Shown here: positions 19,705 to 54,544 of the stretch, piece by piece
How positions within the stretch are numbered: position 1 is the first letter of the stretch
Layout of the letters: every line of letters starts with the position of its first letter
Assembly (NCBI GenBank): GCA_965205265.1
Contig: CBDBGH010000003.1
Coordinates: forward strand, 4,768,001-4,832,000
Length of the DNA stretch: 64,000 nucleotides
DNA from: Alphaproteobacteria bacterium
GTDB lineage: Bacteria; Pseudomonadota; Alphaproteobacteria; Bin95
Direction: 5' to 3'
Program-made: the position numbers and the translations under genes
Notes under the pieces: model-generated
Told to the model about the DNA's origin: nothing
Database searches by the model: none
What the model saw: the letters and a program-made list of their open reading frames with translations, nothing else

Positions 19705-19745
19705 ATGACAATCCGATTGTCATGAAAATCGGATAATGCTATGCA
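19705..19745 (+). promoter_or_regulatory. Operator/promoter site 1 (paired CAATCSGATTG boxes) upstream of gapR
   Basis: CAATCCGATTG 19709-19719 and AAATCGGATAA 19726-19736; TTGTCA-17-TATGCA. Confidence 0.7.
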
Positions 19746-19796
19746 TGCGGCGTGAGACAGGGAAAACCGGCGAAAGGCCGGAGAGAGAGGTCACGG

Positions 19797-20042
19797 ATGG
19801 CGGACGAGGGCGGTGTGACGGCGGAGGCGCTCAAGGCGTTTATCGAACGCGTGGAGCGCCTCGAGGAGGAGAAGGCGGGTCTGTCGGCGGATATTCGGGA
19901 GGTCTATGCGGAAGCGAAGGCGAACGGTTTCGACGTGAAAACCATGCGTCAGATCGTGCGGCTGCGGAAGATGGACAGCGCCGACCGGTCGGAGCAGGAG
20001 GCCCTGCTTGAACTCTATATGCGCGCGGTCGGTATGAAATGA
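19797..20042 (+). CDS. gapR: GapR/DUF2312 (UPF0335) nucleoid-associated protein
   Basis: [49 protein letters not shown] matches the family consensus. Confidence 0.92.
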
Positions 20043-20305
20043 GAGCGGCCGCGGCCCGGCTCGCCGGCAGGACCTTGAAAGGGCTGTCCGGGCGGCCCGT
20101 GGAGGCGCTGTCGACGGCCTGGCTGCTGACCCTGGTGGCCGGACATGTGGGCGAGGAAGGGACCCCGACCGGTCTGGGGCTGCGCTGGCTTCTTCTGGTT
20201 GTGGCCGGATTCCTGATCGGGACCGCGTGGGCGGGCTGGTTGCGGCAGCGGGCAGCCGAACGCGGAAGAGAGCGCCGGAAGGCGCTCCTGGGCGCCGCTG
20301 AGTAA
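20039..20305 (+). CDS. Small membrane protein
   Basis: ATGA overlap with gapR; two hydrophobic segments. Confidence 0.55.
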
Positions 20306-20353
20306 GTCCGGCAGCCGCATTCGTCGCTGCGGTTGCATGGGCGAGAGAGGATC

Positions 20354-20677
20354 ATGTCGTTGAGAGCGATATTGCAGGGTGCCGGGATACCGGTGGCGCT
20401 TGCGGGTGCGACGGTGATGGCTGCCGGGTCCGGTGGCGACACGCGGCAGATTGCCGGTATCGCCGTGTCCCTTCTTGCCCTTCTTGGCAGCGGCCTGATC
20501 TGGGCGGGTGCGGCGCTTGGCGGATGGTGGCGGCGTGCGCCGCCACGAGGGCCGGTACAGCGCGATGCGCCTGAGGGAAGAGGCCTAGCGGTTCGACAGG
20601 ACGGGGTCGAACGGAAGGTCCCGGTCACGCGAGATGAACAGGTCGAGCGCGTTGCGGATCAGCGCTGTCCTGGATGA
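20354..20677 (+). CDS. Small membrane protein
   Basis: GAGG RBS; two hydrophobic segments; 3' end overlaps the opposite-strand gene. Confidence 0.45.
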   Translation: MSLRAILQGAGIPVALAGATVMAAGSGGDTRQIAGIAVSLLALLGSGLIWAGAALGGWWRRAPPRGPVQRDAPEGRGLAVRQDGVERKVPVTRDEQVERVADQRCPG

Positions 20678-20977
20678 TCGCCCGCCCGTGTTTTCGTCAT
20701 TGGTAATGCGGCGGTCGAGCCGGTCGATCTGGTCGACAAAGAGGTCTATGCCTGTCGTTACGGAAGCCCGGCGTCCAGGCTGGTGAGGGGGCGTGTCCGG
20801 GTTGTTGAGAAAGTCGTCGATCGCCCGGCGGACAAGGGCCGCCCGGGAGTAGGGCATGCCCTGGTGTTCGAGCCGGTCGAGAATCCGGTCGATGGCCTGA
20901 AGCTGATCATCGTAGATCAGTAGTCCGCAACGCTTTTTTTCACGGGCTGCGCGTGCAGGCCGTCTGGAAGACGTCAT
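20585..20977 (-). CDS. Tandem ribbon-helix-helix (CopG-like) DNA-binding protein
   Basis: Two repeats: GLLIYDDQLQAIDR...SRAALVRRAIDDFL and GIDLFVDQIDRLDR...SRTALIRNALDLFI; divergent from dotD. Confidence 0.7.
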   Translation of the reverse strand: MTSSRRPARAAREKKRCGLLIYDDQLQAIDRILDRLEHQGMPYSRAALVRRAIDDFLNNPDTPPHQPGRRASVTTGIDLFVDQIDRLDRRITNDENTGGRSSRTALIRNALDLFISRDRDLPFDPVLSNR

Positions 20978-21069
20978 TCCGAGTTTCCCCATATCTTTGA
21001 TATGGCGGCGGCTGAAGTTTCAATGCAATGCATTATCATCCCCGGCGTGGCGGGGAAAGGAAAAACCCG

Positions 21070-30182: not shown

Positions 30183-30236
30183 CGATTTGCTTGACATTGC
30201 AATCCGATTGGCATAGTAATCGGATAGCTGTATGCA
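30183..30236 (+). promoter_or_regulatory. Operator/promoter site 2 upstream of the DUF5131 operon
   Basis: CAATCCGATTG 30200-30210 and TAATCGGATAG 30217-30227; TTGACA-17-TAGTAA and TTGGCA-17-TATGCA. Confidence 0.7.
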
Positions 30237-31308: not shown

Positions 31309-32505
31309 ATGGCGGACAGCACGAAAATCGAGTGGACGGACGCGACCTGGAATCCGGTGATCGGCTGCCGGGTGCTCACCCCTGGCTGCACGAACTGCTA
31401 TGCCATGCGGCTCGCCGGAGGGCGGTTCCGGAACCATTCGAGCCGGTCCGGGCTGACGAGCAAGAGCCGAGCCGGTCCTGTCTGGACCGGCGAGGTGCGC
31501 TGGAACGAGGCGCGGTACGAGGAGCCGCTGCGCTGGCGGCGGCCCCGGCGGATCTTTGTCGTGGCCCACGGGGACCTGTTCTATGCGCCCCGGAGGTGGA
31601 TCGTGCGGGTCTGGGCGGCGATGACGCTCGCTCCGCAACATTGCTTCCAGGTGCTGACGAAGCGGTCGGCCCGCATGCGGCGGATCCTGAACGACCCGGA
31701 TTTCAGGCGCGAGGTCGAGGAGGAATGCGCCGCCCTGATCCGGCTGCGCAAGCTGCCGGGGAAGGCGCCTGGCCTGCATCCCTCGCGATGGACGGATCCG
31801 GAGGACGGCGTGCCGGAAGCGGCCTCCTGGCCGCCGGACAATATCCATGTCGGGATTTCGGCCGAGGACCAGCCCCGGCTTGAGGAACGCTGGCCCGACC
31901 TGGCGCTGGCGGATGTCGCCCTGCGTTTCATCAGCGCCGAGCCGCTGCTCGGGCGTCTGGATATTACCAGGGTGTCGATCGGCGAAAGACTCGTCGATAT
32001 CCGCGTGCCGGCCTTCGGGCTCCCGCCGGTCGAGTGGATCATCGCCGGCGGCGAGAGCCAGACCGGAGCCCGCCCGATGCATCCGTCCTGGGTGAGGGAG
32101 CTGCGGGACCGGTGCGCGCCTGTCGCGCTGCCCTTTTTCTTCAAGCAGTGGGGCGACTGGTTGCCGGGGGAATACGTCGCGTCGGACAGTCCCGGGGACC
32201 GTTTCGGCTACAATCTCAGGCAGGACGGCGTCAGGGGGGACTGGGACGACTGGGAAGACGGCCCGCTCGGGCCGGGCCGCTACGCCTGCTGGGACTCCGG
32301 CGGCGGCGTCCACTACGATGTGTCGCGGGATCGCAAGAAGCGGGCCGCGTTTCTGGAACGCTACGGGCGGCCGACAGCCTGGGCCTTCCGTGTCGGGAAG
32401 AAGAAGGCCGAACGCCTGTTGGACGGGCGGTTGCACGACGCCATGCCGCCGATGCCTGACCCGTTCCCGATGCCTGACCCGTTCCCGATGCGTGAGGCCG
32501 CGTGA
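31309..32505 (+). CDS. DUF5131 / phage Gp37-Gp68 family protein (radical-SAM-like), copy 1
   Basis: TKIEWTDATWNPVIGC......CTNCYA, GDLF, QVLTKR, SAEPLLG, WIIAGGES, FFFKQWG. Confidence 0.92.
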   Translation: MADSTKIEWTDATWNPVIGCRVLTPGCTNCYAMRLAGGRFRNHSSRSGLTSKSRAGPVWTGEVRWNEARYEEPLRWRRPRRIFVVAHGDLFYAPRRWIVRVWAAMTLAPQHCFQVLTKRSARMRRILNDPDFRREVEEECAALIRLRKLPGKAPGLHPSRWTDPEDGVPEAASWPPDNIHVGISAEDQPRLEERWPDLALADVALRFISAEPLLGRLDITRVSIGERLVDIRVPAFGLPPVEWIIAGGESQTGARPMHPSWVRELRDRCAPVALPFFFKQWGDWLPGEYVASDSPGDRFGYNLRQDGVRGDWDDWEDGPLGPGRYACWDSGGGVHYDVSRDRKKRAAFLERYGRPTAWAFRVGKKKAERLLDGRLHDAMPPMPDPFPMPDPFPMREAA

Positions 32506-39421: not shown

Positions 39422-39477
39422 ACGCCGGTATTCCGACGGCCTGAGGATGACCGGCCGTGCCGGTCCGCGGCAAATCG

Positions 39478-39488: not shown

Positions 39489-39646
39489 AAGCCTCGTAAT
39501 TGCTTTTGCCGGAGACGCGCAGGTTTACCTGGCTGGCGCTGCGGCGGTCGGCGCTGCGCTGGTGATGCTGGCTCTTGCGGGCCGGTGTGCGAGGGCCTGA
39601 CAATCGGGGCTTGCGGTTCTGGGATGAACCAGTGGAACCCGCTCTT

Positions 39647-40450: not shown

Positions 40451-40493
40451 GGCGGGTGTCCCCCGGGTTCCCTGAAGGAGCGTTGCCAGAAAG

Positions 40494-40540
40494 CCGATAT
40501 GTCCATCCGATTGTCATGTCAATCCGATTGCGCACGAATG
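40494..40540. promoter_or_regulatory. Operator/promoter site 4 between the divergent Thg1-like and family A genes
   Basis: CCATCCGATTG 40503-40513 and CAATCCGATTG 40520-40530; on the minus strand TTGACA-17-TATCGG faces the Thg1-like gene. Confidence 0.65.
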
Positions 40541-40672
40541 GCAAGTCGGGCAGTCGGGACAGTCCGAACCCCCGTGTGACGTGGAGAGTTTTCCGGTTTT
40601 CACGGAAAGCCCGTAGCCTTGGTTCGCGCGCGCTGGGGCGCGTCGTGAACGCGCGGGAGCCGGAGTGGGCGG

Positions 40673-43433
40673 ATGTCTGTCGATGAAGAGGCGCCGGTAA
40701 CGGCCTTCATGCTGGAGCCAGGGGATGCGATCTTCATCGAGGGCGAAGAGGCCGACTACCGGGTGGAGGTCGATTTCGACCCGGAGGTTGCCCCGCCATG
40801 GGAAGGGGTCAGTGACTTTGTGCCGGTTCTGCTCTTCGAGGGGACCCGGGATGTCAGCGTGCGGCAGGTCGGCAGCGATGAGGCAGGGAACCTGAAGGCG
40901 GGCGGCCTGGACATGGTTCCCGTCGAAACCGTCCTGGAGCACCGTGAGGCTTTGCTGGAGTGGGCCGGCGCCAGCCGGAAGGAGGCCCGGGAGTGCGCCA
41001 GGCTAACTGGTGCCAGTGTAGCCGGTGAAAGTCCGGCAGGAAGGAGAAGGTGAGCCACCACTTCCACCCCGAGTCATGGGCCGTCGCTCGCGAGGGCGGG
41101 GGTCAAGCGTTGACAGGGGCGCGTGCGGACAGGGCTATCGAGCACCGAAAGATCCTTAGTCCGGGATGCCGAGACCTTTTCCTCGGTCGAAGGCAGCATC
41201 CGACCCACCGTTATGGCGAGGGGGGTCGGAGTCCCGCGGTGTCCAAGAACCCATGCACGTACGTAAGCACTGCACCGGGACCTGGGAGGTCTCCATGCCA
41301 TCCCGCTGTCGTGGCAGGATCGCAAAGGAAAGGAGTAGTCCGTAACCGATGATGAACGGCATGGAGAAGTCAGACTCGGCCATAGTAGCCGTGAAGCCGG
41401 CGAACAAAGGGGCGTCAGCCTCGGCGGAGCCGGTGGAGCCAAGGGCCGAGCCCAAGGGGAATCCGGAAGGCCAAAGCACGCGCCGGACGCAGAACCGGGA
41501 AAGCGTGTCACAGGCGGCCGACCGGATACGGCAGTTTGTACAAAGGGAACGCAAGGTGCGTCTCACGACGCTCCTTCACCATGTCACGGTCGATGCGCTT
41601 CGCTGGGCGTTCTTCGAGCTAAAGAAGAACGCGGCGGCGGGCGCGGATGGCATGACGTGGCGGATGTACGGGAAGGAACTGGAAGGCCGCTTGGCCGACC
41701 TGCACGACCGCGTGCATTCGGGAGCGTACCGGGCGACGCCATCGCGACGGGTGAACATCCCGAAGCCGGATGGCGGTACACGACCGCTCGGCGTCGCGGC
41801 CATCGAGGACAAGATCGTCCAGAAGGTCGTGGCGGAGATAATCCTGACGCCGATCTACGAGGCGGAGTTCCTGGGGTTCAGCTACGGGTTCCGGCCCGGT
41901 CGTGGGGCGCACAATGCGCTCGATGCGATCGCGGTCGGCATCGACAAGTTCAAGATCAACTGGGTGGTCGATTGCGACATCCGCAAATTCTTCGACACGG
42001 TGTCGAGGGACTGGCTGGTCCGGTTCCTTGAACACCGCATCGCGGACAAGCGGGTCATCAGGCTGATCATCAAGTGGCTGAACGCCGGCGTCATGGAAGA
42101 TGGAGAGAGGCGGGACGACCTGCGGGGGACCCCGCAGGGATCGGTGATTTCGCCGATCCTGGCGAACGTCTACCTGCATTACGTCCTCGATCTCTGGTTC
42201 CATAAGAAGTGGCGCAGCCACGAGGTCTACGGCGACGCGATCATCGTGCGGTACGCCGACGACTTCGTGGTTGGTTTCCAGCACAAGCAGGACGCGGAGC
42301 GATTTCTGGATGCCCTGAAGGAGCGGTTCGGAAGCTTCGAACTGGAACTGCATCCCGACAAGACCCGGCTCATCGAGTTCGGGCGATTTGCCCCTAGAAA
42401 CCGTCGGCGACGAGGGCAGGGCAAACCGGAGACTTTCGACTTTCTGGGCTTCACGCACTACTGCACGGAGACCAGAGGCGGGCGTTTCCAGTTGGGGCGC
42501 AAGCCGGTTGCGGAGCGGATGGCCCGCACACTGAAGCGGATAAAGGAAGCGCTATGCAGCCGAATGCATGACAACGCCGAAGAAACGGCGAGGTGGCTGG
42601 GCAAGGTGCTTGACGGATGGCTGAACTACTTTGCCGTCCCGATGAGCCACCGATACCTGAGCCGCTTCGCCTCGCGCCTGAAGCGGATGTGGATCGCGAT
42701 CACGCGCCGCAGATCGCAACGGGACCGCTTCGGCTGGGCACAGGTCGACAAGTTGACGACCAAGTACTGGCCCAAGGTGGAAATCCGGCACCCGTGGCCG
42801 AACCGACGACTTGCCGTCAGCGTGTATGGGAACAGCGCAACCCGAGGGAGGAGCCGGATGCCTTAGCGGGCACGTCCGGATCTGTGCGGGGGGCGCCGGG
42901 CAACCGGCGTCCCTACCGCGATGGCGGTTCCCGACGGCGACGGTGAAGCGCTGCGGGATTTCCTAGCAGGCAAGATCGATGAAAAGCGGATGCGGATGCT
43001 GAAGGAGGTTGTCAAGCAACCATATGGGGAGATCGATGACTATTTCCTCCTTCTGGAGCGCATGTTTCGGACGGTGGGGATCCCGGCCAGACGGTTTCAG
43101 GTCTCTTCGGAAGGGTATCTCATTGCGTCCTGTCTGATGGCGCTGACGCCGGGATGGCAGGAGTCGGCTCTAGGTGAGTACAGGCCGTGGAACGCCGTCT
43201 CGAGCCCGGACAGGGTTCTGACGGAGAAGTTCGAGACATTCCGCGAGCAGTATCTCGAGTACCGCCAGCGCGGCATCTACATGGTCGAGATCTCGGACGC
43301 CGACACGGAGGAGATCATCGAGGCCGGCGGGAATTTCCGCGATATGGAGGAAGCCGCCGCGTATGCGTCGCGGTTGATTCGGGACTGTGAAGCGCGCGAC
43401 GCGAAGGAGAGGGAGGCGGGCCCGGAGCCCTGA
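40673..43433 (+). CDS. Cargo paralog family A, member 3, split by a group II intron (exons 40673-40992 and 42923-43433)
   Basis: Exon join GA|G gives ...KEARE-AVPDGD... and a 276-aa ORF colinear with the 279-aa neighbour at 43518. Confidence 0.85.
40993..42922 (+). mobile_element. Group II intron (1930 nt)
   Basis: 5' GTGCG; domain V GAGCCGGATGCCTTAGCGGGCACGTCCGGATC; domain VI ending CCCTACCGCGAT. Confidence 0.92.
41349..42866 (+). CDS. ltrA: Group II intron reverse transcriptase/maturase without an endonuclease domain
   Basis: IPKPDGGTRPLG, FSYGFRPGR, DIRKFFD, GTPQG, RYADD, FDFLGF, GWLNYF. Confidence 0.95.
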   Translation: MMNGMEKSDSAIVAVKPANKGASASAEPVEPRAEPKGNPEGQSTRRTQNRESVSQAADRIRQFVQRERKVRLTTLLHHVTVDALRWAFFELKKNAAAGADGMTWRMYGKELEGRLADLHDRVHSGAYRATPSRRVNIPKPDGGTRPLGVAAIEDKIVQKVVAEIILTPIYEAEFLGFSYGFRPGRGAHNALDAIAVGIDKFKINWVVDCDIRKFFDTVSRDWLVRFLEHRIADKRVIRLIIKWLNAGVMEDGERRDDLRGTPQGSVISPILANVYLHYVLDLWFHKKWRSHEVYGDAIIVRYADDFVVGFQHKQDAERFLDALKERFGSFELELHPDKTRLIEFGRFAPRNRRRRGQGKPETFDFLGFTHYCTETRGGRFQLGRKPVAERMARTLKRIKEALCSRMHDNAEETARWLGKVLDGWLNYFAVPMSHRYLSRFASRLKRMWIAITRRRSQRDRFGWAQVDKLTTKYWPKVEIRHPWPNRRLAVSVYGNSATRGRSRMP

Positions 43434-43517
43434 CGGGCAGCCCCCGAGGCCGGGGCTGAATGCGCGAATGTTGGTGGATAGCTCGCTGGAGGCAGCGGGC
43501 GGATCGAGGAGGCCGAT

Positions 43518-44357
43518 ATGGCTGACGAGACGGTGAAAGGCCCGGTGACGGCGGACATGCTGGAGCCTGGGAAGGAAATCCAGGTCGGCGATTGCCGGGT
43601 GCGGTTCGACTACGATATGGACATCGAGGCGCCCTGGGAGGAAACGCCCTCCGACTTCCTTCCGGTACTGCTGTTCGAGACCAACCGGAGGATGGAATGC
43701 TTCCAGATCGGTGCCGGGCGCCACGAAGACTGGCTCGCCGGCGGTGGCCTCGACATGGTTCCCCTGGACGTCATCGCGTCGCATCGCGAAAGCTTGCTGG
43801 GTCTGGTCTGCGACAACCGGGAGGAGCTGGAGGAACTGCAGGAATACGATTCCGAGTACAGGCAGGTGTACCGGGGCGGCGACTACGACGAAAGGGAGAT
43901 GCTTCGGGAGTTCCTCTGGAAGAAGCTCGAGGAAAAGCGCCCGGACCCGAAATACGGGGAGTATGAGCGGCCGCATGAGGCGATGCGGGACTGGTTCGGG
44001 CGTCTTGAGGGACTGTTCTGCGAGGTCGGGATCCCGGCGGAGGAATTCCGGGTGACGACGGCCCGGGAGGTGACGTCCTGCCTGGCGGTGCTTACGCCGA
44101 AGTGGCATGCGGAGGCACCCGGCGCCGCCGAACGTCCGTCTCCGGACGGTCTGCTGCACAAGAAGGTGGCTGAGTTTTCCGAGGTGTACAGGAAATATCG
44201 CAACGGCGAGGTTTATCTGGTGGATGTGTTTTCCGAGGCTGGCGACATCCCGGTCGACGCCTGCGGCGGTTTCTATGATCGTGAGGAGGCCGCGGCTTTC
44301 GCCTCCGAGACGGTCCAGGGTTTCGAGGCCGACGCGGAGGCCGATCCCGAGCCGTGA
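43518..44357 (+). CDS. Cargo paralog family A, member 4
   Basis: VTADMLEPG...APWE..SDFLPVLLF; YRNGEVY...CGGFY; ends DPEP. Confidence 0.75.
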   Translation: MADETVKGPVTADMLEPGKEIQVGDCRVRFDYDMDIEAPWEETPSDFLPVLLFETNRRMECFQIGAGRHEDWLAGGGLDMVPLDVIASHRESLLGLVCDNREELEELQEYDSEYRQVYRGGDYDEREMLREFLWKKLEEKRPDPKYGEYERPHEAMRDWFGRLEGLFCEVGIPAEEFRVTTAREVTSCLAVLTPKWHAEAPGAAERPSPDGLLHKKVAEFSEVYRKYRNGEVYLVDVFSEAGDIPVDACGGFYDREEAAAFASETVQGFEADAEADPEP

Positions 44358-44543
44358 TCCGGCCCGGCTGCGGCACCTCCCGATCTCATCGTCCAGGCCG
44401 GGACTGCGGCCGCGCTGACGAGCAGGGGTTTCTCGCGGCGGTGCCCTCCACCCTGAAGGACGCGGCCTCTCCAGCCCGGTCCTTCCCTCCGTTCGTCAGC
44501 GTCTCCCGGTGTTTCCGGGCCTTCACGAATGGCGTATAGAATT

Positions 44544-45870
44544 CCTGACTTCGACGGTTGGGCTGACTTCTGACCGATCTCGCGTCTGGAGTTTTCAGTA
44601 AAGCCAATGAGTTGGCAGTTGCGGTGCGGTCAAGCTGCGTTGTAGTGCCTAGTAAATCTTTGAGACTGTCAATGCCTCCGCCACGCGCTACACTCCCCCC
44701 ATGTTCGTGCGCATCAAGACCTCCCCCAACAGCCCGCGACGCTCGGTCCAGATCGTCGAGGCCGTGCGCGACGGCGGCAAGGTCCGACAGCGCATCGTCC
44801 GCCATGTCGGCGTGGCCATGGACGAGGACGAGCTCGAGCGCCTGAGGCAGCTCGGCGAGTACGTCAAGGCGAAGCTGGAGGACGAGCGTCAGCCGGCATT
44901 GTTTGCGCCCGAGAAGATCGCTGAGCAGGCGATCCGTGTCGGCCGCCGGGGGGACGGCAAGGAGGAACTCCCGGTCGACCTCAAGCAGCTTGAAGAGGAG
45001 CAGCGCCTGATCACAGGCATCCACGAGGTCTATGGCGAGATCTCCTGCTGGGCCTCGACGCGCTGCTGCCGCGCTCGCGCTACCGGGCCTCCCATGACGC
45101 GCTGTTCCATGTGGTGATGGCGCGGGTAGCCAACCCCGACAGCAAGCGGGGCAGCGTGCGCCGGCTAGGAGGACTTCGGCGTGAGTCTTCCGCTCGAGAA
45201 GGTCTACCGGATGATGGATCAGCTCGACGCGACCCGAAATACGGGGAGTATGAGCGGCCGCATGAGGCGATGCGGGACTGGTTCGGGCGTCTTGAGGGAC
45301 TGTTCTGCGAGGTCGGGATCCCGGCGGAGGAATTCCGGGTGACGACGGCCCGGGAGGTGCTGGGGCAGGTTCTCGCTCGTCCTGCCTGGCGGTGCTTACG
45401 CCGAAGTGGCATGCGGAGGCACCCGGCGCCGCCGAACGTCCGTCTCCGGACGGTCTGCTGCACAAGAAGGTGGCTGAGTTTTCCGAGGTGTACATCGCCT
45501 TCCTGGCCTTCGCCTGCGGAAATATCGCAACGGCGAGGTTTATCTGGTGGATGTGTTTTCCGAGGCTGGCGACATCCCGGTCGACGCCTGCGGCGGTTTC
45601 TATGATCGTGAGGAGGCCGCGGCTTTCGCCTCCGAGACGGTCCAGGGTTTCGAGGCCGACGCGGAGGCCGATCCCGAGCCGTGATCCGGCCCGGCTGCGG
45701 CACCTCCCGATCTCATCGTCCAGGCCGGGACTGCGGCCGCGCTGACGAGCAGGGGTTTCTCGCGGCGGTGCCCTCCACCCTGAAGGACGCGGCCTCTCCA
45801 GCCCGGTCCTTCCCTCCGTTCGTCAGCGTCTCCCGGTGTTTCCGGGCCTTCACGAATGGCGTATAGAATT
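44544..45870 (+). other. Mosaic of a partial IS1634 and a second copy of the family A4 3' region; probable assembly chimera
   Basis: IS 5' part (44544 to about 45230, with small deletions) joins sequence matching 43944-44543, which is interrupted by short IS-derived patches. Confidence 0.8.
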
Positions 45871-47786
45871 CCTGACTTCGACGGTTGGGCTGACTTCTGA
45901 CCGATCTCGCGTCTGGAGTTTTCAGTAAAGCCAATGAGTTGGCAGTTGCGGTGCGGTCAAGCTGCGTTGTAGTGCCTAGTAAATCTTTGAGACTGTCAAT
46001 GCCTCCGCCACGCGCTACACTCCCCCCATGTTCGTGCGCATCAAGACCTCCCCCAACAGCCCGCGACGCTCGGTCCAGATCGTCGAGGCCGTGCGCGACG
46101 GCGGCAAGGTCCGACAGCGCATCGTCCGCCATGTCGGCGTGGCCATGGACGAGGACGAGCTCGAGCGCCTGAGGCAGCTCGGCGAGTACGTCAAGGCGAA
46201 GCTGGAGGACGAGCGTCAGCCGGCATTGTTTGCGCCCGAGAAGATCGCTGAGCAGGCGATCCGTGTCGGCCGCCGGGGGGACGGCAAGGAGGAACTCCCG
46301 GTCGACCTCAAGCAGCTTGAAGAGGAGCAGCGCCTGATCACAGGCATCCACGAGGTCTATGGCGAGATCTACCGGCTGCTGGGCCTCGACGCGCTGCTGC
46401 CGCGCTCGCGCTACCGGGCCTCCCATGACGCGCTGTTCCATGTGGTGATGGCGCGGGTAGCCAACCCCGACAGCAAGCGGGGCAGCGTGCGCCGGCTCGA
46501 GGAGGACTTCGGCGTGAGTCTTCCGCTCGAGAAGGTCTACCGGATGATGGATCAGCTCGACGCGACGGTGATCGAGCGACTGCGCACGCGCGTCGGCGAG
46601 GCGAGCCGGTCGCTGCTGCCGGAGCCGGTCGCGATCCTCTTCTTCGATTGCACCACGCTCTACTTCGAGACGGCCGCCGAGGACGAGCTTCGCCAGCACG
46701 GCTTCAGCAAGGACGGCAAACACAAGGACTCGCAGGTTCTGCTGGCGCTGATGGTGACGCGCGAAGGGCTGCCGATCAGCTACGAGGTCTTCCCCGGCGC
46801 CACCTACGAGGGACACAGCATGGTCCCGGTCCTGCAGGACATGCAGCGCCGCCACCAGGTGGAGCGCACGGTATGCGTGGCCGACCGGGGCATGCTGAGC
46901 GCCGACAACCTCGACGCCATGGACGCCATCGGCGGCGAGTATGTCGTCGGCGCGCGGCTGCGCAAGCTGCCGCTCGCGCTGCTGGGGCAGGTTCTCGACC
47001 CCGGGACCTATGCCCCGCTGGAGGGCTCACAGGACCGCCGGGTCGGCGAGTGGGAGTACAAGGGCCGTCGCCTGATCGTCGTCTTCTGCCCCCAGCGCGC
47101 ACGCAAGGACGCGCACGAGCGCCGCCATCAGGTGGAACGCCTGCTCGACAGGCTGGCCCGCAGCGACAATCCCAGGGAACTGCTCTCCAATCACGGGGCG
47201 AAGCGCTTCATCGCCGTCGAGGGCGACGCACGGCTCACGGTGAACCCGGAGAAGATCGCCGAGGCCGCACGATGGGACGGGCTCACCGGCGTCATCACCA
47301 ATCTGCGCGACGCGCGCGTCACCGAAGTGATGGCTCACTACCAGGGGCTCTGGCAGGTCGAGGAGAGCTTCCGGATCACCAAACACGACCTGAAGATACG
47401 TCCCATCTGGCACTGGAACCCGGACCGGATCCGCGCTCACATCGCCATCGCCTTCCTGGCCTTCGCCTGCGTTCGACACCTTGCGTACCGCGTCGCCATC
47501 CAGAAGCGGCGGATGTCCCCGGAGGTCATCCGCTCCGCCCTCGTCCACCGCCAGTGCTCCCTGCTGCGCTGTCGGCAATCGGGCAACCGCTACGTCATCC
47601 CCTCGAAGCCGACACCGGCGGCGGAGCAGATTTACGCAACCATGGGGCTGCCCCTGACGATCACCCCGTATCAACTCGCCTGACCGTCGACGAAGCACGG
47701 CTCGAAGAAATGCCGGATGTAGTGCCTAGCCGAAATGAGAACCAGGCAATATCAACTACTTATGCGAATCAACCGTCGAAGTCAGG
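45871..47786 (+). mobile_element. IS1634-family insertion sequence, copy 2 (1916 bp)
   Basis: Same inverted repeats and same transposase as copy 1; flanked by a 287-bp direct repeat. Confidence 0.93.
46028..47683 (+). CDS. tnp: IS1634-family transposase
   Basis: Protein identical to 12693-14348. Confidence 0.95.
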   Translation: MFVRIKTSPNSPRRSVQIVEAVRDGGKVRQRIVRHVGVAMDEDELERLRQLGEYVKAKLEDERQPALFAPEKIAEQAIRVGRRGDGKEELPVDLKQLEEEQRLITGIHEVYGEIYRLLGLDALLPRSRYRASHDALFHVVMARVANPDSKRGSVRRLEEDFGVSLPLEKVYRMMDQLDATVIERLRTRVGEASRSLLPEPVAILFFDCTTLYFETAAEDELRQHGFSKDGKHKDSQVLLALMVTREGLPISYEVFPGATYEGHSMVPVLQDMQRRHQVERTVCVADRGMLSADNLDAMDAIGGEYVVGARLRKLPLALLGQVLDPGTYAPLEGSQDRRVGEWEYKGRRLIVVFCPQRARKDAHERRHQVERLLDRLARSDNPRELLSNHGAKRFIAVEGDARLTVNPEKIAEAARWDGLTGVITNLRDARVTEVMAHYQGLWQVEESFRITKHDLKIRPIWHWNPDRIRAHIAIAFLAFACVRHLAYRVAIQKRRMSPEVIRSALVHRQCSLLRCRQSGNRYVIPSKPTPAAEQIYATMGLPLTITPYQLA

Positions 47787-48073
47787 ACGCCTGCGGCGGT
47801 TTCTATGATCGTGAGGAGGCCGCGGCTTTCGCCTCCGAGACGGTCCAGGGTTTCGAGGCCGACGCGGAGGCCGATCCCGAGCCGTGATCCGGCCCGGCTG
47901 CGGCACCTCCCGATCTCATCGTCCAGGCCGGGACTGCGGCCGCGCTGACGAGCAGGGGTTTCTCGCGGCGGTGCCCTCCACCCTGAAGGACGCGGCCTCT
48001 CCAGCCCGGTCCTTCCCTCCGTTCGTCAGCGTCTCCCGGTGTTTCCGGGCCTTCACGAATGGCGTATAGAATT
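47787..48073 (+). repeat. 287-bp direct repeat (also at 45584-45870 and 44257-44543)
   Basis: ACGCCTGCGG...GTATAGAATT abuts both ends of IS1634 copy 2. Confidence 0.9.
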
Positions 48074-48142
48074 CTGCCGGACGGAATGCCCCGGGGTGTC
48101 GGGCGGTGGGCGGTGCACAGCCGAAGCGGGCAGAAATTATGC

Positions 48143-48180
48143 CGTCTTGATTGACATAACAATCGGATTATGCTAATAAT
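48143..48180 (+). promoter_or_regulatory. Operator/promoter site 5
   Basis: TTGACA-17-TAATAA with CAATCGGATTA 48160-48170 in the spacer. Confidence 0.7.
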
Positions 48181-48214
48181 AGGGACCTGCTCCTGCATGC
48201 CGGAAGTTCCTGTC

Positions 48215-49256
48215 ATGACCTCCTCGACGATGTTCCTGGAAAGAACGGGTGACGATGTATTCGTGGTGCATGGCGGCATCTGCGACGGCGCGCGGATCCG
48301 CGTCGAGCGCCGGCCGGTCGCGGAGGAAGACAGCCGCTCGTCCTATAGGGGCAATGGCCGCCCAAGCAAGGATGGCTGGCGTGTGGTCGGTGGAGGAAAG
48401 GCGAGCATCCAGGATATCGAGGCGGGCGTGGATCTGTGCCCGGTAATCGACACGCCCGAGCCGCAGAATCATCATTCGGCCAACGATGCGCGCGGCGCGC
48501 TCGAGCAGTATTTCGGGCTCGAGGCGGTCGTGCAGACGATCGAGCGGTCGAACTATCCGCCCCTGCTCTCGCGCTTCTGCCTGGAATCGGTCCGGACGGT
48601 GCGGCCGGACTATCCGGACCCGCCTGCGCGGGTCCAGAGATGGCCGTCGGGAGAGTGGACGGACGAGTTTGACGGCGTCTGGCGGATCTGGGCCGGGGGG
48701 GCTGAAGCACCTTCGGGCCGCACCGAACGCGACGGCGCGCATCGCGGCCCTGGAGTTCGCCGTGAAGCGGGCCGCCGGCGACGCCGAGTGCCATGGCTGG
48801 TTCGCCGAGCACTGGCAGGCTTTCGAGCGGTTCCCCTGGTATGAGGAGCTGCCCGAGGTCAGCGGTGTGCAGATTGTCGGCAATGCCCGCAAGCGGGCCG
48901 AGGAGCCGGGCGTGCATGTGCTCCGGCGCCTGACGGTGGAGATCACGGCGAAAGGGCTTCAGGAACGCCGGCGGATGCGTGTTCCGATGTGGCTCGTTAA
49001 CCACAGGACCCTTCTGGTGGAGAGCGGCTTCGATCCGGCGGTCGAGGATGTGGCCGGGCTCATCCGGGCCTGGTCTTCGGATGGCGGCTACGGGCGTGAC
49101 TACGAGGCGGAGGCGGTCAAGCTTCTGGGGCAGGCCGGCGAGCGTGCCATCCACGCGGAGATGGAGCGCAAGTTCACCGAGGAACTGTCCCGTCGGGTCG
49201 GACCGGACCTCGAGGTGACGGTCTCCATCAGGCCGAAAGAGACAGGGGATGGGTGA
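48215..49256 (+). pseudogene. Hypothetical gene frameshifted at a G7 tract (48695-48701)
   Basis: Removing one G joins ...VWRIWAGG to LKHLRAAP..., giving one ORF that ends at 49256. Confidence 0.55.
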
Positions 49257-49557
49257 GGCTCCGGAAAGCCATATCCCGCCCGTGATCGGGATCGGCGGGC
49301 ATTACTGGCATGCGCCGCCGGAGCCCGGGGACCGTGTCTTCCGCCGGACGACGCGCGGCTTCCTGGAGCGGCATCCCGAAGTGGTCCCGGTCTGGCTGGA
49401 AGCCCGATGCGATGCCTGTGGCTATGCCGAGCGCCTGTATTGCGACGACGAGGTCTGGGACGGGTGCGAAGGCTCGCTGGGCCATTCGCCATGCGGACGG
49501 CGCCCGGTCCCCTACAGGCCGGTCGGGGAAGGCCGGTCAGGGCAGGAGGCACGATGA
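49249..49557 (+). CDS. Small Cys-containing protein
   Basis: Overlapping start and stop with neighbours; CDAC...C...C. Confidence 0.55.
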   Translation: MGEAPESHIPPVIGIGGHYWHAPPEPGDRVFRRTTRGFLERHPEVVPVWLEARCDACGYAERLYCDDEVWDGCEGSLGHSPCGRRPVPYRPVGEGRSGQEAR

Positions 49558-49736
49558 GGCGGTTTCTGCATGAAGTCACGTCGCCCTACCAGCTCATGAG
49601 TCCGTCCGGGTGGTTCCTGGTCTTCATGACGGCGTCCTTTGACGCCCAGTGGCCGATAACCAGGTGGCTGTTCCTGGCCGTCACGGTCCTGTTGGCGGTG
49701 GACCGGCTGCTGGGGGTCCATGAGGAGCGGGACTGA
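49554..49736 (+). CDS. Small membrane protein
   Basis: GGAGG RBS; ATGA overlap; two hydrophobic segments. Confidence 0.55.
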   Translation: MRRFLHEVTSPYQLMSPSGWFLVFMTASFDAQWPITRWLFLAVTVLLAVDRLLGVHEERD

Positions 49737-49993
49737 TGCCGGAATATGCAAGGGACAGCGCTGGCAGGGCGCATGTGCTGCGCCCGCCCCAGCCATGGAT
49801 CGGCCTGCCTCTGCAGCAGCGGTTCCGGTTCTGCGACCGGGATGGAGCCGGTGGAAAGGATGTCGGAGATTTCACGCTTCGCGGGAATAATGACGAGCCC
49901 TGTTCCGGGCCGGCGACCTGCCTCGAATGCAGGATGGCCGTCCAGGGGATATCAGGGATGCGATCAAGGGCGTGCGCTGGGCGCGCAGTGTAG
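49736..49993 (+). CDS. Small putative zinc-binding protein
   Basis: TGATG coupling; H...C...TCLEC. Confidence 0.5.
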   Translation: MPEYARDSAGRAHVLRPPQPWIGLPLQQRFRFCDRDGAGGKDVGDFTLRGNNDEPCSGPATCLECRMAVQGISGMRSRACAGRAV

Positions 49994-50006
49994 CGGGGTT
50001 CGGACT

Positions 50007-50213
50007 ATGAGCGGACGGATGGTGCATTTCCGGAGCCCGGAGAGCAGCCGCACGGCCTGCGGTGTCCGGGTCGCGATCGGCGAGGGCGACAGCGCAGTGG
50101 TCGTGCGCGCCCGCGGGCGCATCCGCTGCACGGACAACCGCGAGGACGTGACATGCCGGCGCTGCCTGTCCAGTCGGCCCGACGGGTGGACCCGGTGGAA
50201 GGAGGGCGACTGA
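50007..50213 (+). CDS. Small putative zinc-binding protein
   Basis: VHF...TACG...VTCRRC. Confidence 0.55.
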   Translation: MSGRMVHFRSPESSRTACGVRVAIGEGDSAVVVRARGRIRCTDNREDVTCRRCLSSRPDGWTRWKEGD

Positions 50214-50247
50214 TCGGCAGTGCCCGGAGAGGCGAGGAAGTCTTGCG

Positions 50248-51174
50248 ATGAAGACGAGGACGAGAGAGAAAGCCCCGCCAGCGGTAACGGCGGACATGCT
50301 GGTTCTCGATGAGGAGATCGATGTCGGGGAGTATGGCGTTCGCTTGTGCAGGCCGCCGGAGGAACCGCCTCCCTGGGAAGTCGATCCGACCTGGCCGCCT
50401 GCGGTGATAATCGACAGGAATTTAAGACTGGTGCAGATCGGAGAAGATCCCGTTGACTGGAGAACGGGGGGGCTGGAGGCGGTGCCGCCCTCGCGCTTCG
50501 GGAGGGTTCGCTATTGGATTGCCGATGCGCTCAATTGCCCTTTCGAGGGGTTCGGGGATGATATCGACGAGATGTTGCGAATGGAGATTGAGGATGCCTA
50601 TCGGAAAAGGCATCCTGATCTTCCTGCCGGCGCCTTCGTGGATGATGATGAGGTTTTGCGGGAGCATTTTGTGATCCATATGAAGGGTTTTTTTCCGGAT
50701 TACGGAGAAGGAACGAAGAAATGGAAACAATCTGATCGTGTTCGCGCGGCAGAAGACTATATCGAAATTCTTGAGGATGTTTTGAAAGCCCAGAATGAAG
50801 AGGCCTGCTACTTCAGGGTGCAGGAGGGAAACGGCTCTGTGACGCTGGGCATGTTCGTGTTGTCGGATTCCTGGCAGGCCAAGGTCTTCGGGCCGGATGG
50901 TGAAGACAGGCGGAAAGATTGGGCTTTTGTCAGGCCTATCCGGGACAGATTCGAAGACGGTGAGTTCGCCAGGTTCCTGAACAAGGGCCAGTTCAGCATT
51001 ACCGTGACGGATAAGGTCTATGGTGGGGTCGCCACCTCGTGCTGGAATTGCGCCAGTCCTGAAGAAGCGGCGGCGTTTGTGTCCGACTGGATGGAAATGG
51101 CCTCTGGAGGGCCGAGCGGCACGGCCGCCAGCCCAAATCCTGACGCCGACCATCAGGAGATGACATTGTCGTAA
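50248..51174 (+). CDS. Cargo paralog family A, member 5 (divergent, more AT-rich)
   Basis: VTADML..DEEIDVG...PPWE, GGLEAVP, CWNC.S.EEAAAFVS. Confidence 0.65.
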   Translation: MKTRTREKAPPAVTADMLVLDEEIDVGEYGVRLCRPPEEPPPWEVDPTWPPAVIIDRNLRLVQIGEDPVDWRTGGLEAVPPSRFGRVRYWIADALNCPFEGFGDDIDEMLRMEIEDAYRKRHPDLPAGAFVDDDEVLREHFVIHMKGFFPDYGEGTKKWKQSDRVRAAEDYIEILEDVLKAQNEEACYFRVQEGNGSVTLGMFVLSDSWQAKVFGPDGEDRRKDWAFVRPIRDRFEDGEFARFLNKGQFSITVTDKVYGGVATSCWNCASPEEAAAFVSDWMEMASGGPSGTAASPNPDADHQEMTLS

Positions 51175-51250
51175 CCGTCGATCCGGTTTTTGCTCTTTCA
51201 CGCAGAGCCTGGATATTTTGCGAAAAGGAGAATGAGGTGGATCGGAAGAA

Positions 51251-52150
51251 ATGAGTGCAGCAAAAAACGGAGAGACGGCGCCTCTCCATGTCATTTCCTT
51301 AGGTGCGGGCGTGCAGAGCACGACGCTCGCACTCATGGCGGCCCATGGCGAGATCACGCCAATGCCGCATGCGGCGGTGTTCGCCGATACGGGAGCGGAG
51401 CCGCCCGAGGTCTATGAGCATCTCAACTGGCTGAAGGGCGCCAATGTGCTGCCGTTCCCGATCCATATCGTCCGCTATTCGGATATGGTGGAGGACCTCG
51501 AAAAAACGGCCAATGGCGAGACCGAGGTGGCCCGGCGAACCGGGGGTTACGTCGCGGCCCCGTTCCACACACTGAACGTCGACGGCTCGAAGGGGTTGCT
51601 ACGGCGTGAATGCACCCAGAACTACAAGATCCGCGAGATCGAATATGCGCTGAAGGATATCCTCGGGCGCCCGCGCGGCGTGGCCATACGGTCGCGGACG
51701 CCGCTGGTAATACAGTGGATCGGGATTTCCGCCGACGAGGTCCAGCGGGTCAACTGGAAGGGGCCCGCCTGGGCCGGCAAACGGTACCCGTTCCTGTCGC
51801 GGGCGATGAAGGACGACCCGCAGGACCTCTGGATGAACCGCCGGGACTGCGAGGCCTGGCTGCTCAAGCACGACTATCCTGTTCCGCCGAAGTCGGCCTG
51901 CACGTTCTGCCCTTATCGCTCGAACGCCGACTGGCGCTGGCTCAGGGACAACTCGCCCGAAGGCTGGATTCAGGCGATCGAGATCGACCGGACGATCCGC
52001 GGCATGCCCGAGAAGTCGCAGGCCGGGCTGCGCCTGGGCGGCAAGCTCTTCGTCCACGGGTCGTGCAAGCCGCTCGATGAGGTCGATCTGGACGAGGCGG
52101 ACCAGTTCAACCTCTGGGATGCAGAGTGCGAGGGCATGTGCGGCGTGTAG
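51251..52150 (+). CDS. Phage/plasmid-type PAPS-reductase-like (PP-loop, Cys-rich) protein
   Basis: ISLGAGVQST, FADTGAE, RECTQNYKI, WIGISADE, PPKSACTFCPY, terminal ECEGMCGV. Confidence 0.75.
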   Translation: MSAAKNGETAPLHVISLGAGVQSTTLALMAAHGEITPMPHAAVFADTGAEPPEVYEHLNWLKGANVLPFPIHIVRYSDMVEDLEKTANGETEVARRTGGYVAAPFHTLNVDGSKGLLRRECTQNYKIREIEYALKDILGRPRGVAIRSRTPLVIQWIGISADEVQRVNWKGPAWAGKRYPFLSRAMKDDPQDLWMNRRDCEAWLLKHDYPVPPKSACTFCPYRSNADWRWLRDNSPEGWIQAIEIDRTIRGMPEKSQAGLRLGGKLFVHGSCKPLDEVDLDEADQFNLWDAECEGMCGV

Positions 52151-52177
52151 CCGGCAGAGCGGGAGCGGGGTGACGGA

Positions 52178-52387
52178 ATGGGGCGACGGAAACAGCGGGA
52201 AGAGCGAGAGATCCGGGCCGTGGTCACGGTGAGGGCGCCTGCTCCCCACGCCGCGCGGATCCGCGCCTGCTGGCTGTCCGCGCTCGAGAAGATGGTTGCC
52301 AGGACGCTCGGCGTCGGACATGGCGATATCCGGGTCATATTGACGGCGGCCCCGCGCGGCGCCGCCGTCGGGAGGTATCGCGGGTGA
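52178..52387 (+). CDS. Small hypothetical protein
   Basis: Lies in the operon; stop overlaps the next GTG. Confidence 0.45.
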   Translation: MGRRKQREEREIRAVVTVRAPAPHAARIRACWLSALEKMVARTLGVGHGDIRVILTAAPRGAAVGRYRG

Positions 52388-52995
52388 TCTTTCTGGAAAA
52401 GAGAAGCGAGTGGGCCACAAACGGGCTGGCTGTCGCCTTCCTTCTGGTTGTGGCCCTGCCCGGGGTCGGGCCGGACAGCGCCGCTGCGTTGACGGGAGCG
52501 TTCAACGTCGGGTTGCTGAGCCTGGTCGGGTTGGTCTTCGTCCAGAATGTGATGAGCGTGTTGCTGGAAACGGAGCGTGACGGTCTCGTCCTGGGCCAAT
52601 GGTATTCGAGCACCTGGGCGCCGTTGAGGGTCGTCCTTGTTGTCGCAGCCCTCGCCCCGGTGCCCGGGGCGGGAGGGTTGAGTGGGGTTCAGGTCCTGGC
52701 CGGCCATGCTGCCGGCATTGGCGGCGGGGAGATGTCGGCCGCCGCCTCCGCCGCGATCCTCTGGGGCCTGTGGGGGCTGGCGGGCGCCGCTTGGATTGTC
52801 TGGTCGGTGAGGTCCGGCCTGACAATCCGGTCGGCCGTTCTTCATCTGAGGGGCGTGCGCAGCCGTTTGTCCGAGAGTCCGCGGTGGTGGCTTCTGGTCC
52901 CTGCTTTCCTTGTTTCCATCTGGTTGGTGGGGGGGATAGCGGTTACAGCACTAGCCATGTTTTTTGCCATTCCTCACCCAGGGACCGGAGGGTGA
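52384..52995 (+). CDS. Membrane protein resembling the N-terminal part of DotA/TraY
   Basis: FNVGLL...ETERDGLVLGQWYSSTWAPLRVVL...PVPG.GGLSGVQ matches the DotA/TraY N-terminal signature. Confidence 0.6.
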   Translation: MIFLEKRSEWATNGLAVAFLLVVALPGVGPDSAAALTGAFNVGLLSLVGLVFVQNVMSVLLETERDGLVLGQWYSSTWAPLRVVLVVAALAPVPGAGGLSGVQVLAGHAAGIGGGEMSAAASAAILWGLWGLAGAAWIVWSVRSGLTIRSAVLHLRGVRSRLSESPRWWLLVPAFLVSIWLVGGIAVTALAMFFAIPHPGTGG

Positions 52996-53000
52996 CGGCG

Positions 53001-53603
53001 ATGGAGACCGCCCATGACATGACCTGGCTTGAGCGGGAGCTGGTGCCGCCGTCATGGAGCGGGCTGGATATCGCGCACCGCGTGGCGGGGCCTGAGGACA
53101 AGGTCCACCGGCGCCTGCGCGAGGCGGTGTCCGTTCCCGTCAGGCGCCATCTCTGGGTTCCGGAAGACGCGGTGGAGTTCACGCCGGCGCTCTCGGACGT
53201 GGTCTATGGCGACGGGCGGGCCCTGCTCGCCATCACGACCATCCATGACCGCCCGCGCTATTGGCTGGTGCGCATCGACAGCTCCTGGCCGCTCTGGCTC
53301 GATCCCGGGCTTCCGGGCGGGGACGATGAGGAGATGGCGGACTATTGCGAACACATCACCGAGAATCTTCGTCTCGAATTCGGGGACGGGGAGCCGAGGT
53401 GGGATGAAGACGAGTGGGAGGACGAGGAGGATCCGGTGGCCCGGGAATACGGCCTCCCCTATCCGTCCATCGATCTGAGGGACGGCTACTCCTGGCGGCG
53501 GGAATCCTGGCCGGAGGCCGGGTTCGACGGTGTGCCGCATCCGTATGACCCGCATATCCGCATCCTGCCGGAGACGCAACCGGCGGTGGAGCCGGGGCCG
53601 TGA
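53001..53603 (+). CDS. Cargo paralog family B, member 1
   Basis: RVAGPED..HRRLREA, LSDVVYGDG.ALL, WLVRID, HI.ENL..EFGDG shared with the next gene. Confidence 0.75.
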   Translation: METAHDMTWLERELVPPSWSGLDIAHRVAGPEDKVHRRLREAVSVPVRRHLWVPEDAVEFTPALSDVVYGDGRALLAITTIHDRPRYWLVRIDSSWPLWLDPGLPGGDDEEMADYCEHITENLRLEFGDGEPRWDEDEWEDEEDPVAREYGLPYPSIDLRDGYSWRRESWPEAGFDGVPHPYDPHIRILPETQPAVEPGP

Positions 53604-54241
53604 CGGATCTGGCCGCTCTCTACCCTCCGCTGAAGGAAGGCATGCTGCTTTCCCCGTCCTATCACAGTGGATTCGACTTCGCGCAGCGCGTGGCCGGGCC
53701 GGAGGACGAGATCCACCGCCGGTTGCGCGAGGCGCTCCCGGTGCGGAGCAAGTATCCGGAAGGGGGCGTCGGCTGGAATGCCGGGCCCGGGGATGAAGGG
53801 TTCATGCCGGTGCTTTCCGATGTCGTCTATGGCGACGGTGGCGCCCTGCTTTCCATCACGACATTCTACGACGATCCGGCCCGCTGGCTGGTGCGCATCG
53901 ACACCGGTTGGTGGGACAATCTGTGGGATGAGGAGGCCGACGGGTCCGTGCAGGGGCAGCACACGGTCGGCGACTACATGAGCCACATCCTCGAGAACCT
54001 GGCGATCGAGTTCGGCGACGGGCAGCCGCATGAGCCGCATCATGACGAGGAAGAGGACGATCATGACCGACTGGTGCGGGAATCGGGAGAGCCCTATCCG
54101 GCGATCGACCCGCGCGGCGGCGGCGGCTGGCGGCGCGTGGACTGGCCGGAGGCCGGGTTCGAACGCGTGATCCACCCGTGGAACCCGGAGATCTTCATCC
54201 TGAAGGAAGACGGGCCGGCCGTATCGCCGACATGGCTGTAG
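53600..54241 (+). CDS. Cargo paralog family B, member 2
   Basis: GTGA overlap; colinear with the preceding gene. Confidence 0.75.
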   Translation: MTDLAALYPPLKEGMLLSPSYHSGFDFAQRVAGPEDEIHRRLREALPVRSKYPEGGVGWNAGPGDEGFMPVLSDVVYGDGGALLSITTFYDDPARWLVRIDTGWWDNLWDEEADGSVQGQHTVGDYMSHILENLAIEFGDGQPHEPHHDEEEDDHDRLVRESGEPYPAIDPRGGGGWRRVDWPEAGFERVIHPWNPEIFILKEDGPAVSPTWL

Positions 54242-54491
54242 ATTCAGCCATGCGCCGGGCATAGAGCCAGACGCGATGCCCCGCGCCAAAGGCCCCCCGA
54301 ACATGCAAGGATTGCGGCGCGCCGCTCGACCGGCCCCGCGTGCGCCTGTGCGACGGATGCCGATGGGTGAAGAGGATTGCGAAGGGGGAGGCCTGGCAGG
54401 CCTCGAGGGATTTCGTGAATGCGGTGGCCCATGGCCGGCATGTAGAGCGCGGGCGCATGGACCGGGCTTACCGCGACACGGTCGGTCCACC

Positions 54492-54544
54492 TTGCGGGAT
54501 TGAAACATAATCGGATTGCCATGACAATCGGTTACGCATATAGT
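54492..54544 (+). promoter_or_regulatory. Operator/promoter site 6
   Basis: TAATCGGATTG 54508-54518 and CAATCGGTTAC 54525-54535; TTGCCA-17-TATAGT. Confidence 0.72.

Follow-up and report, generated by a model that had tools for sequence, protein, structure and literature searches.

Whether a short palindrome scattered between genes can mark the promoters of an entire mobile element is the question raised by the 64-kb stretch of DNA analyzed here (the window; C3:4,768,001 to 4,832,000), which lies on a 5.46-Mb contig, C3, of an alphaproteobacterial genome (GenBank GCA_965205265.1, contig CBDBGH010000003.1). An earlier note on this stretch had described an 11-bp box, CAATCSGATTG, paired at a spacing of 17 bp and built into cargo promoters, as the operator of a candidate element-wide regulon. 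This operator regulon is real, specific to one element, and far larger than first seen; its dispersed and element-specific character was borne out, but its size is about 40 clusters and not the 6 sites originally listed. We consider it probable that the boxes are operators of one dimeric protein repressing some 30 to 40 sigma-70-type promoters across an element of ~586 kb.

The evidence rests on counts of the exact box and on its spacing, with weaker boxes counted by their mismatches to CAATCSGATTG. The window holds 4 exact boxes versus 0.05 expected, a number reached by none of 100 shuffled sequences. All previously noted box coordinates were verified, comprising the exact boxes at 19709, 30200, 39478, and 40520, those with one mismatch at 40503, 48160, and 54508, one with two mismatches at 30217, and two with three mismatches at 19726 and 54525. 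Genome-wide, the 20 exact boxes all lie on contig C3, and 18 of them fall within 467 kb (4,787,709 to 5,254,458). The 17-bp offset joined 21 box pairs across the genome, versus 0 to 2 pairs at any one of the remaining offsets between 8 and 44, and a looser cutoff raised the count to 35 pairs versus 0 or 1 at eight control offsets, extending to the whole genome a spacing proposed from the window. All but one of these 35 pairs lay between C3:4,787,709 and 5,319,296, with the remaining one at 3,633,819; the whole-genome pair scan yielded none on C1 and C2, the two smaller, plasmid-sized contigs. One pair without any mismatch is located at C3:5,254,441. Between 4.74 and 5.36 Mb of C3, the boxes form 41 clusters, 30 of them multi-box, versus 34 clusters with a single multi-box case in the rest of the contig (~4.9 Mb), making the motif nearly absent outside the element. 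Clusters contain from one to five boxes, and both orientations occur. Furthermore, the inner unit of a pair (GATTG-N6-CAATC, at most one mismatch) was found 8 times in the window versus 1.57 expected, and no shuffle out of 100 reached 8. A short palindromic operator repeated on one mobile element and rare elsewhere is the pattern that defines an element-wide regulon, and in the genome studied the motif is also a practical marker that outlines the element from sequence alone.

The region enriched in boxes is bounded by near-identical 2.17-kb direct repeats with integrase genes (C3:4,734,317 to 4,736,479 and 5,320,871 to 5,323,041). The segment of ~586.5 kb between these repeats contains all 41 clusters, and the whole window lies inside it. 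The element is not a plasmid; it is a chromosomal insertion of ~586 kb between direct repeats. Dot/Icm-like type IVB genes are present in the window (DotD, TraI/DotC, and two T2SSE ATPases, by Pfam) and elsewhere in the element (DotH, DotI, TrbI, DotM, and a coupling protein), and, judged by its gene content, the segment is an integrated conjugative mega-element. It also carries paralogs of core genes, with identities to the host copy of 39% for DnaA, 61% for RpoD, 55% for DnaG, 43% for DnaB, 47% for RecQ, 78% for a GyrB/ParE-like protein, 76% for RecJ, and 63% for LexA, as well as paralogs of DciA, ClpS, RNase H, and ParA. Also encoded are ThyX, a release factor, and a ribonucleotide reductase of class II. 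The paralogous genes of the mega-element would explain the "contamination" figure of 7.3% for this genome.

Reading the 35 pairs in both orientations gave 70 observations per position, and these define the recognized site. The inner half-sites are almost invariant, with G7, T9, and C22 found in 70/70 readings and T10 in 69/70, while the outer half-sites are looser (48 to 68 of 70) and the 6-nucleotide (nt) spacer tends to TCATGA, at ~55% per position. The conserved core is CSGATTG-N6-CAATCSG, a 20-bp palindrome, and this palindromic structure argues for a dimeric binder. In these terms, the 11-bp box corresponds to two overlapping half-sites, and the 17-bp register links the cores into a chain. 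The idea that paired boxes form a larger palindrome was correct, as the 28-bp pair is palindromic; however, the conserved unit is the inner palindrome and not the single 11-mer.

These sites are closely associated with promoters. The TTG that closes the left half-site is also the start of a −35-like hexamer, and hexamers of the TAnnnT type peak at offsets of +31 (12/70), +26 (11/70), +33 (5/70), and +48 (5/70) from the first box, versus 0 to 2 at most other offsets. Such a hexamer occurs at +26 to +34 in 21 of the 35 pairs, so that operator and core promoter overlap, and in 16/35 pairs TAnnnT is accompanied by a co-oriented gene start within 450 nt. A consensus promoter scan of window positions 39000 to 58999 ranked two operators as its top sites (48151 to 48180, 11/12; 54516 to 54544, 10/12), and 2 of the 4 paired sites in the window passed the promoter filter. 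The −35 and −10 hexamers quoted in the earlier note are present in the sequence, and its proposal that an operator over the −35 hexamer and spacer fits repression agrees with both the hexamer offsets and the two best-scoring scan sites. Given a 17-nt spacer, the core is centered near −29.5 of sigma-70-like promoters, a position that fits a repressor rather than an activator. Additionally, the multi-box clusters are intergenic by the gene calls in 27 of 30 cases, with an overlap of called gene ends in the remaining 3; the intergenic share of the region is ~19%, a rough figure from a first, cruder gene caller that confused strands in this genome of 68% GC and was later replaced.

Taken together, these features suggest a mechanism in which one sequence-specific, dimeric, and probably higher-order DNA-binding protein would occupy the boxes, cover the −35 hexamer and spacer, and repress the promoters jointly, with the 17-bp box register building arrays of one to four cores. 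We infer that a protein binds the boxes, that the effect is repression, and that the element itself encodes the binder. The genes behind the operators include replication and partition functions (dnaB, dnaG, parA, and recQ) as well as cargo, which only in part agrees with the view of the sites as cargo promoters. First downstream genes encode GapR, a DUF5131 triplet, a Thg1-like protein, two C5 DNA methylases, DnaG, DnaB, RecQ, an RNA ligase, ParA, two Fic proteins, HipA, a Band 7 protein, and an AAA_21 ATPase, in addition to ankyrin and pentapeptide proteins.

Within the window, six of six sites are intergenic by the present gene calls, as had been claimed. The pair at 19709 to 19736 (plus strand) combines an exact box (19709 to 19719) with a box bearing three mismatches (19726 to 19736), and its promoter (plus strand) consists of TTGTCA at 19717 to 19722 and TATGCA at 19740 to 19745, separated by 17 nt; the first gene downstream is a gapR paralog (19752 to 20042, plus strand; Pfam GapR_DNA-bd, E = 2.4e-35). 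The site at 30200 is a three-part array according to the inner-unit scan (30189 to 30227, plus strand), made up of the half-site GCTTG at 30189, the exact box at 30200, and the two-mismatch box at 30217, with plus-strand hexamers TTGACA at 30191, TTGGCA at 30208, and TATGCA at 30231. Three DUF5131 genes follow it (31309 to 34633, plus strand; PF07505, E = 3.5e-73, 9.3e-73, and 9.2e-32). The pair at 40503 to 40530 has one and zero mismatches and a perfect inner unit at 40509 to 40524. It lies between a divergent Thg1-like gene, which runs leftward (39647 to 40450, minus strand; Pfam Thg1, E = 6.4e-25), and a plus-strand operon that begins at 40673, and its minus strand reads TTGACA. That operon includes a group II intron-type reverse transcriptase (RVT_1) at 41433 to 42866 (plus strand), of which a second copy, also with a maturase domain, is found at L001:9338-10768. 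The box at 48160, seemingly single, has an upstream partner half-site at 48149, so that the inner unit GATTGACATAACAATC and the box together span 48149 to 48170 (plus strand) within the promoter TTGACA-18-AATAAT (48151 to 48180). The pair at 54508 to 54535 (plus strand) has one and three mismatches, a perfect inner unit at 54514 to 54529, and the promoter TTGCCA-17-TATAGT (54516 to 54544, plus strand), with the next gene starting at 54543. Finally, the exact box at 39478 to 39488 is alone, without a partner or a promoter-like context. Regarding the genes expected downstream of these sites, Pfam supported gapR, the three DUF5131 genes, and the Thg1-like gene, the latter on the minus strand, but it revealed no ASCH domain downstream of 54508 at E ≤ 0.001.

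The motif also extends to related genomes, where G000 denotes the genome studied and G002, G010, G012, G015, and G016 denote other genomes compared. Box pairs (at most three mismatches) occurred in 5 of 61 genomes, namely G000, 4 of the 16 further species in the genus, and none of the 44 genomes from outside it, and the reversed control pattern gave 0 matches. The exact 20-bp core was more widespread, being present in 8/16 other species of the genus, 0/10 genomes of one sister genus, and 3/10 of another, with 0 matches for its reversed-pattern control in all 37 genomes. In other genomes, the core is found mostly within one promoter type, AATTGCCGATTG-N6-CAATCGGTTTGGCATAGGTT. Downstream of this promoter come a leader of ~300 nt, itself conserved, and a gene for a 400-aa AAA+ protein. 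This unit occurs in G000 (with a second copy at 3.63 Mb), G002, G010, G012, G015, and G016. Of eight AAA+ upstream regions from 7 genomes, six retain the core in an identical position within TTGTCA-17-TAGGTT promoters; in one more, a half-site is retained within the spacer, and the last lacks it. The same promoter type also precedes other genes at three further loci, and in four species no other block of the upstream region, which has largely diverged, is conserved as well as the boxes. These comparisons show a core that is conserved, by its pattern of retention, as a footprint in other species. Near-identical copies of the sequence also appear to be contained in sequencing runs from two further organisms.

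The leader itself, seen in L153:1150-1500 and likewise in L154, L155, L156, L158, and L159, contains hairpin-like blocks kept across species; it had no Rfam match and may represent an undescribed cis-regulatory RNA. In the copy of the AAA+ gene carried by the element (C3:4,973,637 to 4,975,148; L008:1637-3145), an in-frame TGA is found at a Trp conserved in four homologues, and a HigA-like helix-turn-helix domain is inserted in the N-terminal part; another protein of the element (120 aa) shares 71% identity with this domain. In G012 (L035:14410-14943), a four-box array in the 17-bp register adjoins a low-GC insertion; 220 nt upstream of the array is the gene for an 83-aa ribbon-helix-helix (RHH) protein of the CopG type, which is without a relative in G000. 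A wider scan of a genome collection with AATCSGATTG-N6-CAATCSG returned at least 112 stretches and gave nothing firm on wider distribution: the 80 loci examined comprised single, apparently chance matches from unrelated phyla, some ten terminator hairpins of Bacteroidota type, and one G012 locus. In the hairpins, the 26-nt palindrome is the stem of an A-tract/T-tract terminator in low-GC (29 to 50%) contigs of metagenome-assembled genomes, mostly labeled Bacteroidota (L053, L058, L060, L062, L074, L075, L093, L101, L111, and L112). Such chance look-alikes would mislead motif scans of public genomes.

It is important to consider which protein could bind the boxes. The LexA paralog (L024:11196-11879, minus strand; C3:5,303,196 to 5,303,879), whose other copy, 63% identical, is at C3:193,354, was discarded because its own upstream region has GAAC-N7-GAAC, the alphaproteobacterial SOS box, and not the motif; this box in the lexA promoter suggests that the element may be wired to the SOS response. 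The DnaA paralog and a protein with only the DnaA_C domain are unlikely binders, as both keep GRDHTTV, the canonical segment that recognizes the DnaA box, TTATCCACA. The 120-aa HTH_3 protein was uninformative, since its HigA-like family is ubiquitous, with members in 17/17 genomes. Operator patterns of sigma-54, IHF, CcrM (GANTC), CtrA, and HipB were considered poor fits. The earlier note had named a tandem RHH protein (P0001, 135 aa; 20585 to 20992, minus strand), divergent from dotD and with a weak RHH_1 match (E = 0.0042), as a candidate repressor. This proposal is not secure, as P0001 has no relative in the 16 genomes of the genus, though the core palindrome is present in 8, and we take the protein to look more like a TraY-type transfer accessory protein.

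The most suggestive locus is the densest array of the genome, with five boxes at C3:4,982,715 to 4,982,799, which overlaps TTGACC-18-TACAAT and ends 26 nt upstream of parA (start at 4,982,825). ParA is a small (230-aa) Walker-type protein (Pfam CbiA, AAA_31, VirC1, and MipZ) without an N-terminal DNA-binding domain, and directly behind its gene lies that of a 110-aa protein with a strand-helix-helix pattern (C3:4,983,535 to 4,983,867). The layout of array, ParA, and small protein corresponds to a type Ib partition cassette, which suggests a centromere binder that doubles as a global repressor, as do the partition proteins omega on pSM19035 and KorB on RK2. In this special case of the repressor reading, the five-box array would be the type Ib centromere and the dispersed copies would serve global repression. 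The single-sequence model of the 110-aa protein was weak (mean predicted local distance difference test [pLDDT] score of 60), with two helices after an unstructured stretch. Its homodimer model scored 0.55 versus 0.00 for the best of three controls. Of proteins with solved structures, 21 of the 30 known as pairs and 0 of the 23 known as single chains attained this mark, although this is likeness only, RHH dimers being common among solved structures. The homodimer runs agreed in at least 93% of contacts, with a partner pLDDT of at least 70 and an interface formed by residues 54 to 64 and the last helix, as would be expected of an RHH dimer. Membership of the RHH partition class is plausible, and this ParG/omega-like protein is the best single candidate for the binder, though a doubtful one. 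It had no Pfam hit, RHH families included, and no relative in 36 genomes of the family, 11 of which carry the core, or in a collection of 5.8 billion protein clusters; a metagenome scan with ParA gave 593 pattern matches, none confirmed. The box geometry is also unlike that of omega, whose heptads are contiguous, and of ParG, which has tetramer boxes. The partition protein as binder is tentative, and a factor other than those named here is more likely than any of them.

The lack of relatives of both RHH proteins in the genus also weighs against an element-encoded repressor, as does the presence of the core in 8/16 of its other genomes; the proposal of a single repressor is supported by one element-specific motif, but its origin in the element is insecure. 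Neither a classical repressor family beside the operators nor a ParB_N or KorA-like domain was found among the called element proteins of at least 50 aa, a scan that left out 19 border-split genes, and none of the DNA-binding domains seen (Xre/HigA-like, AbiEi, AlpA, HTH_17, RHH, LexA, and DnaA-type) could be tied to the motif. At the level of the sites, 14 of the 35 pairs lack a strict TAnnnT at the expected position, and the gapR (19717) and DUF5131 (30208) promoters, whose TATGCA is without the final T, were unlisted by the consensus scan. The boxes are embedded in promoters, as had been proposed, but the lone box at 39478 is placed where two convergent genes end and not at a promoter. Moreover, degenerate boxes taken singly are not above chance, since the window has 19 with at most two mismatches, a count attained in 23 of 100 shuffles, versus 16.0 expected; weak partner boxes count only because they are spaced exactly 17 bp from a strong box. 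A binder encoded outside the mega-element, either a factor common to the genus or one from the AAA+/nucleotidyltransferase module, would accommodate the core in other genomes of the genus and sister genus, with control matches at zero, and its place in a conserved promoter and leader before the AAA+ gene and other genes; the mega-element would then have multiplied the responsive promoters. We find this rather unlikely, because half of the other genomes in the genus lack the core entirely and would leave a core-genome factor without a target, and because the compared loci share no DNA-binding gene near the sites. The AAA+ protein itself shows plain helices and no recognizable DNA-binding fold in its N-terminal part (low confidence, mean pLDDT of 58.6), and the element's own copy is split by the in-frame TGA.

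The sign of the regulation also has to be weighed, as operator position alone leaves it unproven. If the bound protein were an activator, with a signal switching the regulon on, several poor −10 hexamers (TATGCA and ACGAAT) could be understood as promoters that need help. Activators that overlap promoters usually bind near −41.5, and MerR types act on 19- to 20-nt spacers, whereas here the core is near −29.5, the spacer is 17 nt, and the −35 hexamers are mostly good, which makes activation quite improbable. Even less credible is that no regulator exists and that the boxes are part of a copied promoter cassette or form hairpins in transferred single-stranded DNA, similar to Frpo-type promoters. 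Boxes do travel with promoters, a conserved promoter-leader unit precedes different genes, and the 28-bp pair is itself palindromic. However, flanks and 6-nt spacers vary while half-sites and the 17-bp register are kept, box number ranges from 1 to 5, boxes occur in both orientations, and the 28-nt palindrome ends before the −10, so that a hairpin would exclude it; this explanation is very improbable. Repression by one dimeric protein is therefore the reading we prefer.

Global repressor circuits are known from plasmids of 30 to 90 kb. If one motif governs an integrated 586-kb element with paralogs of the core replication and transcription machinery, it would give easy access to the question of how mobile elements of this size are kept silent in their host, and their start-up after transfer could be exposed by mutating a single protein or a single type of box. 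As the best candidate lacks relatives, a new DNA-recognition specificity is likely. In the most far-reaching version, a single master protein, also the centromere partner of ParA, would silence the 586-kb element, and ~40 promoters would fire on transfer to a cell lacking this protein; replication, partition, methylation, and GapR-type promoters would fire together, and the element would boot like a second genome. In this version, the box number in 17-bp arrays would set occupancy and hence the strength of repression, promoter by promoter. We regard this combination as unlikely.

Other features of the mega-element deserve mention. Cas9, Cas1, and Cas2 and the type I-U-like pair GSU0053/GSU0054 are found at L015:12124-18463 and L011:13984-17323, respectively. 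Pentapeptide-repeat and ankyrin-repeat proteins number in the dozens, and there are more than 15 DUF6878 paralogs (L003, L019, L021, and elsewhere in the element); the abundance of repeat proteins, together with a type IVB system, resembles the effector repertoires of intracellular bacteria. The element further encodes several Fic and HipA proteins and carries many insertion sequences (IS). One IS, with a 551-aa DDE_Tnp_1 transposase, is present in many identical copies, two of them in the window (12693 to 14348, minus strand; 46028 to 47683, plus strand) and others in L002, L004, L007, and L008, along with IS21-type (IstA/IstB) and IS605/TnpB-type elements.

Comparison with known systems places these operators among several described networks. 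Full-text sequence searches, with subscription journals outside their coverage, gave no description of the motif among the papers listed, which by their titles dealt with primers or unrelated subjects, in line with its not having been recognized as a described box. The controller (C) proteins of restriction-modification systems bind two adjacent palindromic boxes over the −35 as two dimers; C-boxes serve one operon whereas the boxes here serve a regulon, and no C-protein-like gene is tied to the sites. Omega (pSM19035, Inc18) and ParG (TP228) are RHH centromere-binding proteins of type Ib partition that are also promoter repressors. The element shares with them a small Walker-type ParA, a small downstream RHH-like protein, an array upstream of parA, and repeats at other promoters. 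Unlike the contiguous 7-bp or 4-bp units and the three targets of omega and ParG, the boxes here are 11-bp palindromes 17 bp apart in ~40 target clusters, and the protein is a putative binder of them. RK2 is a plasmid of ~60 kb, and the element is about ten times larger and integrated.

On IncP-1 plasmid RK2, KorA and KorB form a global regulon in which one regulator doubles as a partition protein (PMC11790492, PMC4889941), and, similarly, short palindromic operators occur here at many promoters of one conjugative element and cover replication and partition genes, while KorA and KorB co-ordinate replication, partition, and transfer genes. In contrast, the OB core TTTAGCGGCTAAA and OA GTTTAGCTAAAC (PMC11790492) differ from the box described here. 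The present sites occupy the core promoter as arrays with 17-bp spacing, with no sign of a clamp that slides over long distances. The binder is not of the KorB family, since no ParB_N protein is among those scanned and the operator differs. For R388, one report describes a repressor network with negative feedback and a transcriptional overshoot after conjugation (PMC3937220), which resembles, by analogy only, the earlier idea that genes silenced in the donor would fire on entry to a new host. Such firing would be a reasonable conjecture; R388 uses several repressors, each with its own sites, whereas here one motif dominates. With a motif that appears to be undescribed in the literature covered, the system resembles the KorA/KorB, omega, and R388 networks in kind.

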